From the NCBI GenBank assembly GCA_965116885.1, contig OZ220741.1, forward strand, positions 2,432,001 through 2,496,000: a stretch of 64,000 bases of DNA, given 5' to 3'. Source of the stretch: Candidatus Latescibacterota bacterium. Lineage in GTDB: Bacteria; Latescibacterota; UBA2968. The notes under the pieces are model-generated. The model saw nothing but the letters and a program-made list of their open reading frames with translations. It had not been told where the DNA came from and did not search any database. The position numbers were made by a program, and so were the translations under genes. Positions 15,374-26,551 of this stretch are shown one piece after another (the first letter of the stretch is position 1; every line of letters begins with the position of its first letter).

Positions 15374-16285
15374 ATGCGTCGCTTCACGCGTACGCCCTAT
15401 TATAGCGGGCCGGATGACCCGGCTATTGGCGAGGTGCGAGGTACGCTTGCTCTGGGCGAAACCGTGGTTATTGAGACCATTGGTGGGGCTGATAATGATT
15501 TTGAGGCTGCTGGTGAGGTTCGTGCGGGGATGATTACTTCTGGAGAAAGTCACCGCCGATACGCCCGTCGTGGTGGTCCTTTTCGCATTGAGGGGATTGC
15601 GCCGGATGACTGGGTCGCTATTGAGATTATCGATATTGAGGTGGGGCCTTACGGTTTTTATCGCAACGGAGGGCCGAACTGGGGCAATTGGCGCTGCGTT
15701 GCGCCGGTGCGCGATGGGTTGATCCACTTTCCGCCGGATTTTGTGGTGCCGGTGCGGCCTATGGTTGGCGTGGTTCAGTTGGAACCGTGGGCTGCCCATT
15801 CTATTGATCACGGCGGTAATATGGATTTTAATGCGGTGCAGCCGGGTAGTACTGTGCATATTCGCGCCCAAAAGCCCGGGGGGTTGCTCTCTTTGGGCGA
15901 TGTCCATGCGCGGATGGGCGATGGCGAGTTGACAGGTGCTGGTGTGGAGATCGACGCGGCGGTGACTATAAGAGTGGATCGTTCGCCCGGGTTTCCCAAT
16001 AGCAGTCCGGTGGTGGAGACAACCAGAGTGGTAGAAGCCGCTGAGGAGTATCTGACCAGTGCTCGGGCGACTGAGTGGGGCGAGGCTCTCAGGCTGGCCT
16101 GGTTGGAGATGGTGGCTCTGATTATCGATCGCTACGATACGACGTACGAATACGCCAATATGATCGTGGGGACGATTGGCGATGCGCGGCCCGGCTTTGC
16201 CACGGGCTATATGGGTAGCTATGTCACATGTCAGATTGCAGTGACCAAAGAATTGCGGCGCACCGGGGTGCCGTACGAGGCGTAG
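15374..16285 (+). CDS. Acetamidase/formamidase family protein
   Basis: HGGNMD, SLGDVHARMGDGEL..GVE motifs; AAGGAG RBS. Confidence 0.85.
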   Translation: MRRFTRTPYYSGPDDPAIGEVRGTLALGETVVIETIGGADNDFEAAGEVRAGMITSGESHRRYARRGGPFRIEGIAPDDWVAIEIIDIEVGPYGFYRNGGPNWGNWRCVAPVRDGLIHFPPDFVVPVRPMVGVVQLEPWAAHSIDHGGNMDFNAVQPGSTVHIRAQKPGGLLSLGDVHARMGDGELTGAGVEIDAAVTIRVDRSPGFPNSSPVVETTRVVEAAEEYLTSARATEWGEALRLAWLEMVALIIDRYDTTYEYANMIVGTIGDARPGFATGYMGSYVTCQIAVTKELRRTGVPYEA

Positions 16286-16323
16286 GGGTTTTGAAGTTTA
16301 CAACATTCACGAAAGGATTTGCT

Positions 16324-17097
16324 ATGTATTTGTACGGGATTCGCAATGCGAGTTTGAATATGGATTGGGGAAAAGATGCTTTTGCCACAGCAGGGGATAT
16401 TGGGTTTGATGGGGTGGAGATTGTGCTGCGGGAGGAGGAGCGGTTGGATTGGCTTTTAAGTGCTGCGGGCCGGGAAGAGGTTGGGAGGTGGGTTGAGGAG
16501 ACGGGCGCGCAAGCGTGTTCAATAAGTTTTGCCCTGTTTCGAGAATACAAGGGGAATGAGGAAGATGAGGCTGTGCGCGATCGCGTGGTGGAGCTTGTGC
16601 AAAAGGCGATCCGCGCGTGTAAGGGGATGGGCGGTGTCGGTATTTTGCTTCCGTATTTTGATGCGGAGAATCGCGATATGTCGAGCGCGCATGCAGAATT
16701 GTTGATTGAAGACATGAAGCGATGCGCTCCTGTCGCCGAAGACGAGGGCATTAAGGTTGCTCTGGAGACGAGTTTTTCACCGGGATTGTTGAGGACGATT
16801 TGCGATGGCGTGGGGTCTGAGATGGTGGGGGTGTATCAAGATACGGCCAATGCGCTGCAATACGGGTACGATTCGGTCGATATGCTCGTTACGTTACCGG
16901 AACACACACAATTGATTCATATTAAAGATACGCGGCGTTCTGATCTGGGCGAGGGCGATGTGGATTTTCCCGCGTGTCGAGATGCGATTGCACAGATCGG
17001 TTATGAGGGGTGGCTGATTTTTGAAACGCCAGGAGGTGCAGATCCTGCGGCATCGGGTAAGAAGAATTTGGCGTTTGCAAAAGAGATGTTCGGGTAG
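16324..17097 (+). CDS. Sugar phosphate isomerase/epimerase (xylose isomerase-like TIM barrel)
   Basis: GFDGVE, ALET, DTAN, HIKD, GEGDVDF, GYEGWLIFE motifs. Confidence 0.85.
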   Translation: MYLYGIRNASLNMDWGKDAFATAGDIGFDGVEIVLREEERLDWLLSAAGREEVGRWVEETGAQACSISFALFREYKGNEEDEAVRDRVVELVQKAIRACKGMGGVGILLPYFDAENRDMSSAHAELLIEDMKRCAPVAEDEGIKVALETSFSPGLLRTICDGVGSEMVGVYQDTANALQYGYDSVDMLVTLPEHTQLIHIKDTRRSDLGEGDVDFPACRDAIAQIGYEGWLIFETPGGADPAASGKKNLAFAKEMFG

Positions 17098-17099
17098 GC

Positions 17100-17192
17100 T
17101 GGCAGAGGGAGGGGGACTCGAACCCCATGCGAAAATTCGCACGCGGGCTTGTGTTTTGCTGCCCGCGGCCCACCTTGGACCGTTCACCCCCT
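17100..17192 (-). ncRNA. tRNA-like RNA copy A (93 nt; 8/4 fold, long variable arm, 3' GCCA, 12-nt loop in place of the anticodon loop)
   Basis: Reverse complement: AGGGGGUG AAC GGUCCAAGGUGGGCC GCGGGC-AGCAAAACACAA-GCCCGC GUGCGAAUUUUCGCAU GGGG-UUCGAGU-CCCC CUCCCUCU G CCA. Confidence 0.85.
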
Positions 17193-17212
17193 GCATTGAT
17201 GCTGTTATTTTT

Positions 17213-17299
17213 TGGCAGAGGGTGAGGGACTCGAACCCTGTGCGGTTGCCCGCACCACCGACCAATGTCAGGCGGCCCACCACGAACCGTTCACCCCCT
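17213..17299 (-). ncRNA. tRNA-like RNA copy B (87 nt; 8/4 fold, long variable arm, 3' GCCA, bulged anticodon-position stem with 4-nt loop)
   Basis: Reverse complement: AGGGGGUG AAC GGUUCGUGGUGGGCC GCCUGAC-AUUG-GUCGGUG GUGCGG-GCAA-CCGCAC AGGG-UUCGAGU-CCCU CACCCUCU G CCA. Confidence 0.87.
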
Positions 17300-17323
17300 A
17301 CCTATTTTGACAAGTCTGTACGC

Positions 17324-18313
17324 TTAAAGGTTTCTCCCAACAGTACGTTCAGGGCGCAGTTCCCCCAGGGATTGTTCACCGGGTTGGATATATTCTACGG
17401 CTGGGCTTTCGATGCGCCCATAGGCATTCCACACTTTGAATCCGAGCAAAGAGAGAAGATCGGGCGATGCCTCGGCGAGGACGTCGGGAGCCGTGCCTAC
17501 GGTAAAATTTTCCTGTGGACGGAACTGGGGTCCGCAGAATGTGGTGAGTATGGCCCAGCGCAGTTGATCGCTTATATTGGCTCCTGTGCCGTGCCAGATG
17601 CGTCCGTCAAGGAATCCAACTGTGCCGGCTGGCCCTTCGAGGGCGACTGTTTCAGTGGTGTTGTCATCGGGATTGTCAGGACGGCGTCCCCATAGGTGAC
17701 TACCGGGTACGATGCGGGTGCCGCCGTTTTCTGCTGTGAAGTCGCCGATCATCCAGACCACGTTGATGACGACGCGGGGCCAGATGGATGCGGTATCGGA
17801 TTCGTCTGTTTGTTCGCGGGTGATAGAGCCTGCGGGTAAATGCGTTCGGTCAGCGCGCGTTGGCATGGGCATCCACCACTGGTCTGTGTGCAGGCGCATG
17901 GGAACGCCGCCGGGTTTGGCGATGTTGGCCGAATGGCTCGATAGCAGATAATCATTGCCCAGTGCGTGATCCACGATGTTGCGGACTCCTGAATGTAATA
18001 GCATGTCTTGAAATACCCGACCTTTGTTGATCAGCATCCACACGCGCTGGTTGACACCTCCTGCAGATTGTGTAAACGCCCCCGCGCGTACCTGCCCTTT
18101 TTTATTTCGAAAATCCCCCCAGTTTTGTTTTGCACCTCCGTCTTCAAATGCGAGCCCGCGTTGTTTTTCGGCTATGGCCTGTTCTTTTAGACGGGTTTTT
18201 ATTTTTGAGAGATCTTCCGCGCTGAGGGCGTTGGCAAGCAGGCCATAACCGTAGGTATCGAGTTGTGTTTTGACCTGTGTGAGGTCTTCGGTTGGTTGTG
18301 GAAGTTCAGACAT
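17324..18313 (-). CDS. Phytanoyl-CoA dioxygenase (PhyH) family 2OG-Fe(II) oxygenase
   Basis: HxD (LHTD), NGGTRIVPGSH, WHGTG..R motifs. Confidence 0.88.
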   Translation of the reverse strand: MSELPQPTEDLTQVKTQLDTYGYGLLANALSAEDLSKIKTRLKEQAIAEKQRGLAFEDGGAKQNWGDFRNKKGQVRAGAFTQSAGGVNQRVWMLINKGRVFQDMLLHSGVRNIVDHALGNDYLLSSHSANIAKPGGVPMRLHTDQWWMPMPTRADRTHLPAGSITREQTDESDTASIWPRVVINVVWMIGDFTAENGGTRIVPGSHLWGRRPDNPDDNTTETVALEGPAGTVGFLDGRIWHGTGANISDQLRWAILTTFCGPQFRPQENFTVGTAPDVLAEASPDLLSLLGFKVWNAYGRIESPAVEYIQPGEQSLGELRPERTVGRNL

Positions 18314-24608: not shown

Positions 24609-25172
24609 TCAAGAAGTAATTGCCTGTTCCGATAGTTTGCCGACAAATTCATCGGACGGCAAAATTTCGACCTCATCAACAATTTGGCGTGATAAGACAC
24701 TTCTGAGGTTGCTGAGTAAATCAATTTTCAGATTATTAAAAAATATGGCATCCTGTGTCTCATTCATGCCGCTGACGACGAGCCAGAACTTGTACTTTTT
24801 TGTTCCCAGAAGATCTCTTGCGTCTTGGCATACCGCAGATAGACGACATAATACGAGCATTGATCCATAAGCTTTTAGTCGATTTTCCTGGCGGATGTAC
24901 CTATCGATAAATTGCTTTTGATCGGTGCTTTCGAGATAATGATATTCGTTTTGCAAATCCCTGTGCTGATCTATAAGCTTGGTTTCTTCGATCAAGATAA
25001 TAGTATCGTCCTGGCTGAGCATAAAATAATCACAGCAATTACAAGGACCTAAACCAACATCTTTTCGCATATCAGGTTGCGGTGCTTCGCCATCCATGCG
25101 ATATGCATGGTGGTCTTGAAGAGGTGTACCAGCGAGTTCAATCGGTTCCAGGAATTTTTCGAGGTCAATCAT
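24609..25172 (-). CDS. Hypothetical protein, possible PD-(D/E)xK-like nuclease fold; partner of the upstream ATPase
   Basis: ATGA overlap with ATPase; 'CCDYF..(x8)..ILIEETK' resembles a D...ExK motif; AT-richer sequence. Confidence 0.6.
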   Translation of the reverse strand: MIDLEKFLEPIELAGTPLQDHHAYRMDGEAPQPDMRKDVGLGPCNCCDYFMLSQDDTIILIEETKLIDQHRDLQNEYHYLESTDQKQFIDRYIRQENRLKAYGSMLVLCRLSAVCQDARDLLGTKKYKFWLVVSGMNETQDAIFFNNLKIDLLSNLRSVLSRQIVDEVEILPSDEFVGKLSEQAITS

Positions 25173-26551
25173 ATCCCCTCGATGTACAGATCGGAGAACG
25201 GCTTGGTCAATTCGTGCATAATCTTTCCCATCTTCGTTTCAAAGTCCTCTTCGGTATTACTGTTCTTTACTGGAAATTGGTTGAGCGCAATGAGTTGCTC
25301 ATCGTCCGGGTTCTTCTTTACATGGACTTCCAGCCATTTGAGGATATCTACGCTGTGTGTGGCAATTACTACATTTACACCCTGACGGGACAATTCAAAG
25401 AGGCTTTCTGCCATGATGACTTGCCAGGCCGGATGCAAGTGTGCTTCTGGCTCGTCAATAAAGAGAAATGTCCCTTTATCCAGTACCTTGCGCTCAATCA
25501 GCAATGCCAGGATGCCGAGGTTGGCGATTCCCATAGCTGTGACAGGCAATGAGAAATTGCGACCATTTTCTTGGAAATACAAATTGCCTGTTTCAGAAAT
25601 TGCAATCTTTCCGTCCATGACACTTTTGCCGGTCAACTTTGCATATACATCCGGAAAGGCCATGTCTCCGGTGTATTCATACTTCAATGCTCCGACAAGA
25701 TCATAGAAATATCCCGGAACGCCGCTGAGTCGTTCTCTATCTCCGAAATGTACAGGGTGATCCCGTGCGTCTTCCAACACAGTTTTCAATTTCCAGTAAA
25801 TAGGTGATTCCAGATAGATTACTCTGGAGTATTGCTGCAAGTGCTCTATCAAGGAAATATGTGTCAGGCCTGCAAATCCCTCGTCCGATAGTTCGAATAA
25901 TCCAAACTCCCCAACTTCGACTTTTGATGGTGTTCCTTCTTCCCTTATGAGAGCAGAAATATTTGGCACTTGAAAGTTCTGAATTAAATTTTGTTCGCTT
26001 TGGTACCATATACTGGTTTCAATAAAATTTTCCGTATCCATGTGGCTAAGTTTCTCTTTTAACGCAGCCAATGAATTCATCAGGCTCTCCAAGTAGTATC
26101 TCTGTCCCCTTGCCATTTTTTTTTCGGGAAACTGTGGGATATCGGAGGCTATTTGCTCTATTTTTTTTATGTAGCTGATAAGCTCGGGAATAATTTCTTC
26201 TGAGAGAATTTCCTCATTATACAACGTTTCAATGGAAGCCGCCTTAATGAGAGCTTTTAATTTTTCAGCCTCATTTTTCATTCTAGATAACCGGGATATT
26301 GTAGCTTTATCAGAACGTGTCTCTCGATCTGGCCTCGTCATTATCATCAAGTCGCGATAAACAGGCCCAACCAGATTGTTTAGATGTGTCTCGACATGGT
26401 TTGCGTTCATTGCGTTAAAAAGTGAATACAGGAGTTTTGAAACAAAGCTCTTACCCGTATTATTTGGTCCTGCAAATACAGTGAACTGGCCGATGCTGAC
26501 TTCCGCATCTTCGAGTTTGCCGATGTTTTTGATTTTTACTTTGAAAGCCAT
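25169..26551 (-). CDS. Soluble ABC-type ATPase (AAA_15/AAA_21 family)
   Basis: KIKNIGKL, Walker A GPNNTGKS, degenerate signature TAMG, Walker B/D-loop FIDEPEAHLHP, H-loop IATHS. Confidence 0.9.
   Translation of the reverse strand: MAFKVKIKNIGKLEDAEVSIGQFTVFAGPNNTGKSFVSKLLYSLFNAMNANHVETHLNNLVGPVYRDLMIMTRPDRETRSDKATISRLSRMKNEAEKLKALIKAASIETLYNEEILSEEIIPELISYIKKIEQIASDIPQFPEKKMARGQRYYLESLMNSLAALKEKLSHMDTENFIETSIWYQSEQNLIQNFQVPNISALIREEGTPSKVEVGEFGLFELSDEGFAGLTHISLIEHLQQYSRVIYLESPIYWKLKTVLEDARDHPVHFGDRERLSGVPGYFYDLVGALKYEYTGDMAFPDVYAKLTGKSVMDGKIAISETGNLYFQENGRNFSLPVTAMGIANLGILALLIERKVLDKGTFLFIDEPEAHLHPAWQVIMAESLFELSRQGVNVVIATHSVDILKWLEVHVKKNPDDEQLIALNQFPVKNSNTEEDFETKMGKIMHELTKPFSDLYIEGI

Follow-up and report, generated by a model that had tools for sequence, protein, structure and literature searches.

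The tRNAs closest to the RNAs described here are the (8/4) allo-tRNAs, whose function has been debated since 2017: they have been regarded as mistranslators, as suppressors, or as non-translational RNAs. Intact allo-tRNAs mistranslate by putting Ser or Ala at wrong codons, can kill E. coli and occur near toxin-antitoxin (TA) systems, and one of them with G3.U70 and G73 inserted both Ala and Ser and was active in E. coli (PMC5389517). A translation-inactive group in the same paper, allo-tRNA(UAU), keeps its UAU loop, has stem-breaking changes and sits with transposons or TA systems. Among other systems, the non-proteinogenic tRNA-Gly of S. aureus comes from chromosomal tRNA-like genes, is excluded from translation via D- and T-arm features and serves the Fem transferases (PMC7826273); the TLD of tmRNA and the TLD-only RNA of phage DS6A combine a G3.U70 acceptor with the lack of a decoding anticodon, the TLD being without an anticodon stem-loop (PMC4131195).

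The window analysed here is a stretch of 64,000 nucleotides from a Candidatus Latescibacterota bacterium (GCA_965116885.1, contig OZ220741.1, positions 2,432,001 to 2,496,000), in which two tandem tRNA-like genes lie on the minus strand (Table 1). What is new is a real, conserved and unannotated lineage which has the structure that defines an allo-tRNA and lacks an assignable anticodon triplet in its loop, and whose function, if there is one, probably lies in the tRNA body and not in decoding. No description of the family was found in the literature searched, most subscription journals being outside the coverage, and a term search of the PMC5389517 supplement gave 0 matches for the 5' octamer of the family and 0 for "Latescibacter".

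Comparison with known systems

The family shares with the major GCG and GUC groups of the (8/4) allo-tRNAs a 12-bp acceptor branch, a long D stem, a long V arm, G73 and A1-U72, an anatomy which the preliminary description had recognised in outline. Over the acceptor and the T arm it is almost identical in sequence to "major" soil allo-tRNAs of the GCG and GUC anticodon groups (PMC5389517 supplement), which points to an anticodon-ablated allo-tRNA lineage; the D arm of the third type found in the genome (type D, see below) also resembles that of the major group. The ancestor would thus have decoded, and the loop would have been lost or remodelled repeatedly. Occasional TA neighbours, irregular tRNAs in tandem and a G3.U70 pair in some members are known from the allo-tRNAs of PMC5389517 as well. 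The family differs from them in that all published rows compared carry an anticodon in a normal loop while no family copy does, and also in its host phylum, its chromosomal location, its conservation across an order and in having G3.U70 as the rule. Like allo-tRNA(UAU) these are probably non-translational allo-tRNA bodies; unlike it, they have intact stems, a lost loop with no UAU, and no constant mobile-element neighbour (one TnpB among 28 loci).

An intact relative exists in another family of the class. It is a classical 8/4 allo-tRNA (G110, L308:128-221) with an intact 7-nt loop, the valine anticodon GAC, a serine-type acceptor and a CCA that is not encoded intact; its anticodon stem resembles the one in the types with a 10-nt loop. 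From its sequence it is a potential Ser-for-Val mistranslator.

The long D stem and V arm are also shared with tRNA-Sec and the selC* tRNA-Cys, and tRNA-Sec (RF01852) is the best Rfam match of both window copies, with 32.3 and 31.0 bits (E 0.0027 and 0.006). The scores obtained are 31-35 bits, below the cut-off of 47, and there is no UCA or GCA anticodon. The proposed link to selC*-type tRNA-Cys is not supported, as those RNAs have U73 together with Cys or opal anticodons and the family has G73. The host's own tRNA-Sec lies beside selD, and selA is full-length; this tRNA-Sec is 58-62% identical to the RNAs, no closer than tRNA-Ser. A second Sec system was considered and dropped: among the matches listed there is one full-length SelA per genome, and 53 of 53 genomes have a SelA-family match, whether or not they carry the RNAs. 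Besides the full-length selA, weak matches to the SelA family number up to five per genome in the host and its relatives.

The likeness to the S. aureus tRNA-Gly is that chromosomal tRNA-like genes are kept out of translation; here, however, FemAB is absent and the T arm is canonical. In contrast to the TLD, the family has four stems including a covarying anticodon-side stem, as well as G73, and the tmRNA of the host is ordinary. A bacterial Y RNA, another tRNA mimic, was rejected on the absence of Ro60: TROVE gave 0 matches in the genome, a search whose control matched in 2 of 14.

The two genes in the window

Table 1. Features of the tRNA-like locus and of the third family member. Positions are those of the window unless a contig is given.
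Feature	Position	Strand	Remarks
Copy 1 (type A), 87-nt tRNA-like gene	17213..17299	minus	from sequence, fold and model R1 (107.6 bits)
Copy 2 (type B), 93-nt tRNA-like gene	17100..17192	minus	from sequence, fold and model R1 (66.7 bits)
Arms of copy 1			8-bp acceptor, 6-bp D stem, 5-bp anticodon stem with 4-nt loop, 6-bp V arm, 4-bp T stem, G73-CCA
Arms of copy 2			acceptor with U7.U66, 6-bp anticodon stem with 12-nt A/C-rich loop, 6-bp V arm, 4-bp T stem, G73-CCA
Anticodon-position loop of copy 1, 4 nt	17263..17266	minus	U33/R37 7-nt loop impossible
Anticodon-position loop of copy 2, 12 nt	17149..17160	minus	U33/R37 7-nt loop impossible
G3.U70 wobble of copy 1	17219..17297	minus	G3 = 17297, U70 = 17219; principal identity element for alanine; copy 2 has one too
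A-rich spacer between copies, 20 nt	17193..17212	minus	ends G-C at -2/-1 of copy 2
Leader between PhyH stop and copy 1, 24 nt	17300..17323	minus	TTGTCAA motif
PhyH dioxygenase gene, upstream neighbour	17324..18313	minus	same strand as the RNAs
Xylose-isomerase-like TIM barrel gene, convergent downstream neighbour	16228..17097	plus	
Type D, third member, 105 nt	G000:C1:3461793-3461897 (= L053:1603-1707)	minus	11-12 bp V arm, 8-nt loop CUUCCAAA

The minimum-energy structure of both copies is the four-arm cloverleaf (z about -2.5 without the 3' tail). Coordinates and folds thus agree with the two spaced minus-strand cloverleaves that had been proposed, and the 8-bp acceptor (with one U.U pair, in the 93-nt copy), the 4-bp T stem, the UUCGAGU loop, the 6-bp V arm, G73 and CCA were all found as predicted. 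The anticodon arms had been called irregular; the 12-nt and 4-nt loops stand, whereas the stem of the 87-nt copy is not bulged but a continuous 5 bp with one U.G. The preliminary description overlooked the G3.U70 pair in both copies and the third family member in the same genome. It had expected weak or Sec-like calls from standard finders, and these do miss both copies: ARAGORN reports 0 tRNA genes in the window and the Rfam match to tRNA-Sec is the sub-cut-off one given above.

It should be noted that copy 1 taken alone can be folded equally well as 9/3 (-41.8 versus -41.6 kcal/mol), and only the comparison with the family settles the 8/4 fold. The first T-stem pair is a standard one (A-U, U-A, G-C or C-G) in 58 of 60 copies, one copy (G020) being left out for its T-loop insertion, and a ninth acceptor pair is possible in just 32 of the same 60. 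The family is therefore 8/4, and the 9/3 fold was rejected for it.

A protein-coding explanation of the array was dropped, the overlapping ORFs being unconserved: an open frame spanning the array is found in 2 of 15 genomes, in antisense only. The complement of the 12-nt loop of copy 2 occurs at 4 sites in the genome.

Members and distribution of the family

By DNA search the locus was also detected in 18 of the 20 remaining genomes of the genus, each holding 1-3 tandem copies. The third member came from a motif scan of the own genome and lies about 1 Mb from the pair. It belongs to type D, of which 105- and 106-nt forms of near-invariant sequence occur in 12 genomes; in the host it sits among variable small genes (GNAT, methyltransferase, NUDIX, glyoxalase). 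Covariance model R1, built from 20 copies, matches 20 of the 29 other genomes of the same family (f1) and 0 of 121 genomes from other families in a phylum sample. The broader model R2 matches 25 of the 53 genomes of the order with 1-4 copies each, 2 of 22 in its second family, and one of the 25 (G021) carries a different allo-tRNA-like gene. This separate gene (L112:7059-7146) is of 9/3 type with G1-C72, A3-U70 and an 8-nt loop without U33. Weak R2 matches beyond the order were rejected as canonical tRNA-Ser in 8 of 8 checked (there are 22 weak matches outside family f1).

A strict pattern run on 185,579 species genomes gave 25 loci, every one titled Latescibacterota and one titled UBA2968, and metagenome contigs hold at least 4 further loci (L187, L195, L217, L242). 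A loose pattern on metagenome and viral contigs gives no estimate of range, being swamped by ordinary tRNAs (118 of 156 matches of one class have a 5-bp T stem). Viral contigs, phages and plasmids yielded no family member, BLAST against the latter two returning T-arm fragments or nothing.

Loop types of 4, 6, 8 and 12 nt recur across species, and many of the loops are A/C-rich and unpaired. The D and anticodon-side arms are shuffled among tandem copies, a pattern in the sequences which suggests gene conversion. Decaying copies also occur, with CCA lost, with a T-loop insertion or with a 5' deletion.

Some members deserve separate mention. Two unrelated copies (G020, L043:7305-7418, and G011, L113 near 1128-1259) have an identical 27-nt element inserted in the T loop; the element is part of a dispersed short repeat family with relatives in the host genome (38 short BLAST matches). 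A member of 133 nt (G024, L044:4180-4312) has an extra hairpin on the anticodon-side arm.

Selection on the fold

Under the 8/4 fold 98.6-98.8% of the stem cells are paired among homologues. The pairing alignment comprises 20 distinct copies, without the 12-nt-loop types, which MAFFT misaligned; in it 98.8% of 579 stem cells pair and two-sided changes are seen at 12 of 29 pairs. Covarying pairs make up 5 of 6 in the D stem and 4 of 5 on the anticodon side, and the V stem has compensatory changes too. None of 500 shuffles reached as high a value (the shuffles ignore kinship), and slid controls fall to about 50% paired.

The genes also diverge slowly. For type A the p-distance in 14 genomes is 0.057, while third codon positions in the two genes beside it give 0.150 and 0.212 and the 100 nt upstream give 0.165; for type D it is 0.031, against 0.083 and 0.208 in the 60-nt flanks. 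The divergence is thus about 3 times slower than at third codon positions, and together with the pairing and the two-sided changes this bears out the selection on structure that had been claimed. Homologues breaking pairs in all arms would be the mark of ordinary pseudo-tRNAs; the stems stay paired as given above.

These data bear on the hypothesis that the genes are slowly decaying allo-tRNA pseudogenes, or landing sites of mobile elements, homogenised by gene conversion. It would account for the decayed copies, the shuffled arms, the variable content beside type D and the TnpB gene behind one copy. It has little probability nonetheless: compensatory changes in the D, anticodon-side and V stems and a divergence below that of neutral sites speak against ordinary pseudogenes, and against landing sites speak the lack of an integrase at 28 loci with one transposase, of att-like repeats in four type D regions, and of any occurrence in viral contigs, phages or plasmids.

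Acceptor end and identity elements

The features were counted in 61 copies (49 distinct), partial or interrupted ones being excluded (G024:C481, a 5'-deleted copy of G015 and, in G011, G007 and G006, the second copy of type D). The acceptor pairs are A1-U72 in 58, G2-C71 in 61, G3.U70 in 58 and G4-C69 in 59 copies; G73 is present in 60, U72 in 59 and CCA in 56 of the 61. The three copies without G3.U70 are that of G021 and two which are first in their arrays and also lack CCA. The V stem has 6 bp, or 11-12 bp in type D, and the D stem 5-7 bp with a 3-5 nt loop in most types; two decayed copies have 4 bp and a 10-nt loop.

The anticodon is not among the features that AlaRS and SerRS recognise. 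The identity elements listed in PMC9976931, a table consistent with this, are G3.U70, G2-C71, G4-C69 and A73 for bacterial alanine, and G73, G2-C71, R4-Y69, a large variable region and C72 for bacterial serine. The RNAs have three of the four alanine elements, with G73 instead of A73, and all the serine elements but C72. Read from the sequence, the aminoacylation identity is an Ala/Ser hybrid.

The anticodon position

When folded under constraint, 44 of the 49 distinct copies form four hairpins, with loops of 3 nt (1 copy), 4 (18), 5 (2), 6 (3), 8 (5), 9 (5), 10 (2), 11 (1) and 12 nt (7). A 7-nt anticodon loop is found in 0 of these 44. Folding programs may close or open such loops, and we therefore also asked whether a U33/R37 heptamer can sit anywhere on a stem with 4 or more of its 5 pairs formed, a test which 48 of 48 ARAGORN calls of the host pass. 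Both window copies, and types A, B and D, lack such a heptamer. Eight of the 49 distinct copies hold one on 4-5 pairs, out of the register of the cloverleaf in those inspected; 9-nt loops with a 31.39 mismatch escape the test, and the 106-nt type D could present CU-UCC-AA. The set of ordinary tRNAs in the genome is complete, including tRNA-Sec and tmRNA, so that the pair fills no decoding gap. That the family is non-decoding, as first proposed, is well supported. In the same set, an ARAGORN call of tRNA-Lys(TTT) at G000:C1:2796527-2796608 has neither CCA nor a proper acceptor and is likely to be a false call; the genome has a normal tRNA-Lys(TTT) at 3288272.

A candidate for an exception is type D, and it may be asked whether it decodes, as a four-base or a glycine/tryptophan mis-decoder, the others being disabled siblings. 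Its 8-nt loop, 9 nt in 5 of 12 copies, is U-turn-like and resembles the Trp/Gly/Sec loop with one base added; the type is near-invariant, and activity in E. coli is known for allo-tRNAs that carry G3.U70 (PMC5389517). The anticodon arm, however, is 22-23 nt long with tandem G.A pairs, versus 19 nt in the intact G110 relative, and the hypothesis does not apply to the window copies with their 4- and 12-nt loops. We find decoding by some members quite improbable.

It had also been suggested that the RNAs serve as decoys for anticodon nucleases. This version of the decoy is not supported, the anticodon loop being the very element that the family has failed to keep; any decoy role must concern the acceptor end, the T arm or the V arm.

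The locus and its expression

Neither neighbour of the pair is a constant partner. A SASA esterase gene takes the place of the PhyH gene in two genomes (G001, G016), and the TIM barrel gene is found without the RNAs in G018 and at a second site in G016. The TTGTCAA motif of the leader is kept upstream of the array even when the upstream gene differs, and no sigma-70 promoter or terminator consensus was found at the locus. In 56 of 61 copies G-Y stands at -2/-1, resembling many host tRNA leaders, and the spacer of copy 2 is likely to be cut during processing.

Metatranscriptome contigs from 4 runs, two of them labelled sponge metagenome, were compared with the locus. In 3 of the 4 runs contigs cover both copies; two stop just upstream, at 17296 and 17311, and one continues through, where it should be kept in mind that contigs cannot show ends, strand or level and that there was no DNA control. 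The depth over the pair is no greater than over PhyH, a comparison that contigs cannot rank.

Copy 1 begins just past the PhyH stop on the same strand and one RNA-run contig spans PhyH and the pair, although it cannot show a single transcript. It might thus be thought that the RNAs are t-elements, that is tRNA-like processing signals at the 3' end of an upstream mRNA. This is hardly credible. One copy is antisense to both neighbours in G153 and in G154, and the upstream gene is divergent in G122 and L187, which implies that at these four loci the RNAs have transcription units of their own and are not mRNA processing signals; nor would such a job need tandem copies, G3.U70 or a long V arm.

The neighbours at 28 loci were scanned (14 ORFs plus 107 of 113 plus 44 of 70 ORFs). 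There is no constant partner, no integrase and no tRNA-dependent transferase, and the one transposase is a TnpB whose gene lies directly behind one copy. TA-like genes are present within 3 kb at 3 of the 28 loci and at none of the other 25, figures for which there is no background rate to compare with; they are a nucleotidyltransferase with a HepT-like gene, a BrnT gene, and an HTH-IrrE gene with a small upstream ORF which, read by inspection, is HigBA-like. The gene content beside type D is highly variable, and four type D regions hold no integron-like or att repeats beyond whole-gene duplications. Elsewhere in the window, 8 kb from the RNAs, an AAA_15/AAA_21 ATPase gene is followed by a 187-aa ORF without a Pfam family (24612-26551), possibly a defence or type IV TA-like pair.

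Search for partner genes

One hypothesis says that the RNAs are alanyl or seryl donors for a non-ribosomal tRNA-dependent transferase acting on cell wall, lipid, polyamine or a small molecule. The G3.U70 pair stays a wobble in nearly all copies and is never repaired in CCA-bearing copies of the clade, which suggests that AlaRS reads it, and neither AlaRS nor SerRS needs an anticodon. The non-proteinogenic tRNA-Gly of Staphylococcus (PMC7826273) offers a precedent. The genome, moreover, has one stand-alone DUF2156 (PF09924) gene, of a fold found in aminoacyl-tRNA transferases; it directly follows a gene for a BpsA-like polyamine synthase (G000:C1:755-757 kb, L143:1471-3343), and the two may form a tRNA-dependent or GNAT-like polyamine-modifying pair.

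The search of the 98%-complete genome nevertheless turned up no partner for the donor. FemAB and Acetyltransf_6 gave 0 matches, and Lant_dehydr_N (LanB/PEARL) gave 0 in a search that is uninformative, its control being silent everywhere. There is one AlaRS and one SerRS, with no aaRS paralogues or free AlaX; a second tRNA_SAD match, in a 695-aa ORF, is presumably ThrRS. In the two families of the order, 27 of 29 and 18 of 19 genomes contain the DUF2156 domain, and so do 15 of 15 genomes of genus g6, in which the RNAs occur in 0 of 15. AbiEii-type nucleotidyltransferases behave similarly, with 12 of the 15 g6 genomes having them and the RNA-bearing G122, G153 and G154 giving no match. Both were rejected as partners, being as frequent in RNA-free genomes, and so neither the donor nor a decoy has a partner in hand. 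The patchy occurrence and variable copy number are also unlike those of a housekeeping gene, and we consider the donor role unlikely.

Still less probable is a regulatory tRNA mimic, which would titrate SerRS, AlaRS, EF-Tu, SmpB or RNase P, or present its variable loop. That the loop types, many of them A/C-rich and unpaired, are kept across species would fit it, and one known tmRNA consists of the TLD alone and may titrate SmpB (PMC4131195). Against this, the full D stem and long anticodon-side stem would occupy the place where SmpB binds the TLD, the genome has no Ro60/TROVE gene, and the loop sequence is unconserved between types.

A possible role

We take the RNAs to be maintained and non-decoding, with a probability of about 0.85. 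The scheme we prefer starts from (8/4) allo-tRNA genes which one order of the Latescibacterota would have retained after the loss of decoding. The stand-alone genes would be transcribed, and the products processed by RNase P and 3' trimming as for tRNA. Charging could then be performed by the single SerRS of the host, by way of G73 and the long V arm, and/or by its AlaRS, by way of G3.U70. Loss of the loop would abolish the mistranslation that makes intact allo-tRNAs lethal; that these misinsert Ser or Ala and can kill E. coli supplies a reason for selection against the loop. The job retained may be to stand in for the body of a tRNA, as a decoy for enzymes whose targets are the acceptor end and the V arm, such as tRNA-end-modifying toxins of toxin-antitoxin or phage conflicts.

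That this job is to be a decoy or buffer for enzymes attacking tRNA ends is argued by analogy, and it is a tentative choice. It is placed first for the reason that relatives are tied to TA loci and that the kept CCA end and long V arm match the targets of a known bacterial toxin, which reads the CCA of tRNA-Ser together with its long V arm (PMC11541572). It is placed above the donor on account of the accessory behaviour of the genes, which are patchy, multi-copy, arm-shuffled and sometimes decaying. Counted against the scheme are the missing A73 and C72, the decaying copies, the RNA contig depth over the pair, the lack of a constant partner gene and the distribution of the AbiEii-type nucleotidyltransferases, which do not follow the RNAs.

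Significance

The loss of the anticodon loop in many ways, with the acceptor end, the elbow and the variable arm kept, amounts to a natural experiment. It separates the functions of decoding from those of the body and points to the surfaces that are worth probing, and the RNAs would offer ready scaffolds for Ala/Ser acceptors that do not decode. Standard annotation overlooks the genes, and such families are therefore probably under-counted.

For the marine and sponge-associated Latescibacterota, we would venture, at somewhat less than even odds, a model of chromosomal, multi-copy "blind" tRNAs: charged with Ala or Ser, kept off the ribosome through recurrent destruction of the loop, and acting either as a defence made of RNA alone that soaks up toxins attacking tRNA ends or as the donor pool for some tRNA-dependent chemistry. 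If it is true, the selected function of allo-tRNAs in general would lie in the body of the molecule and not in decoding.
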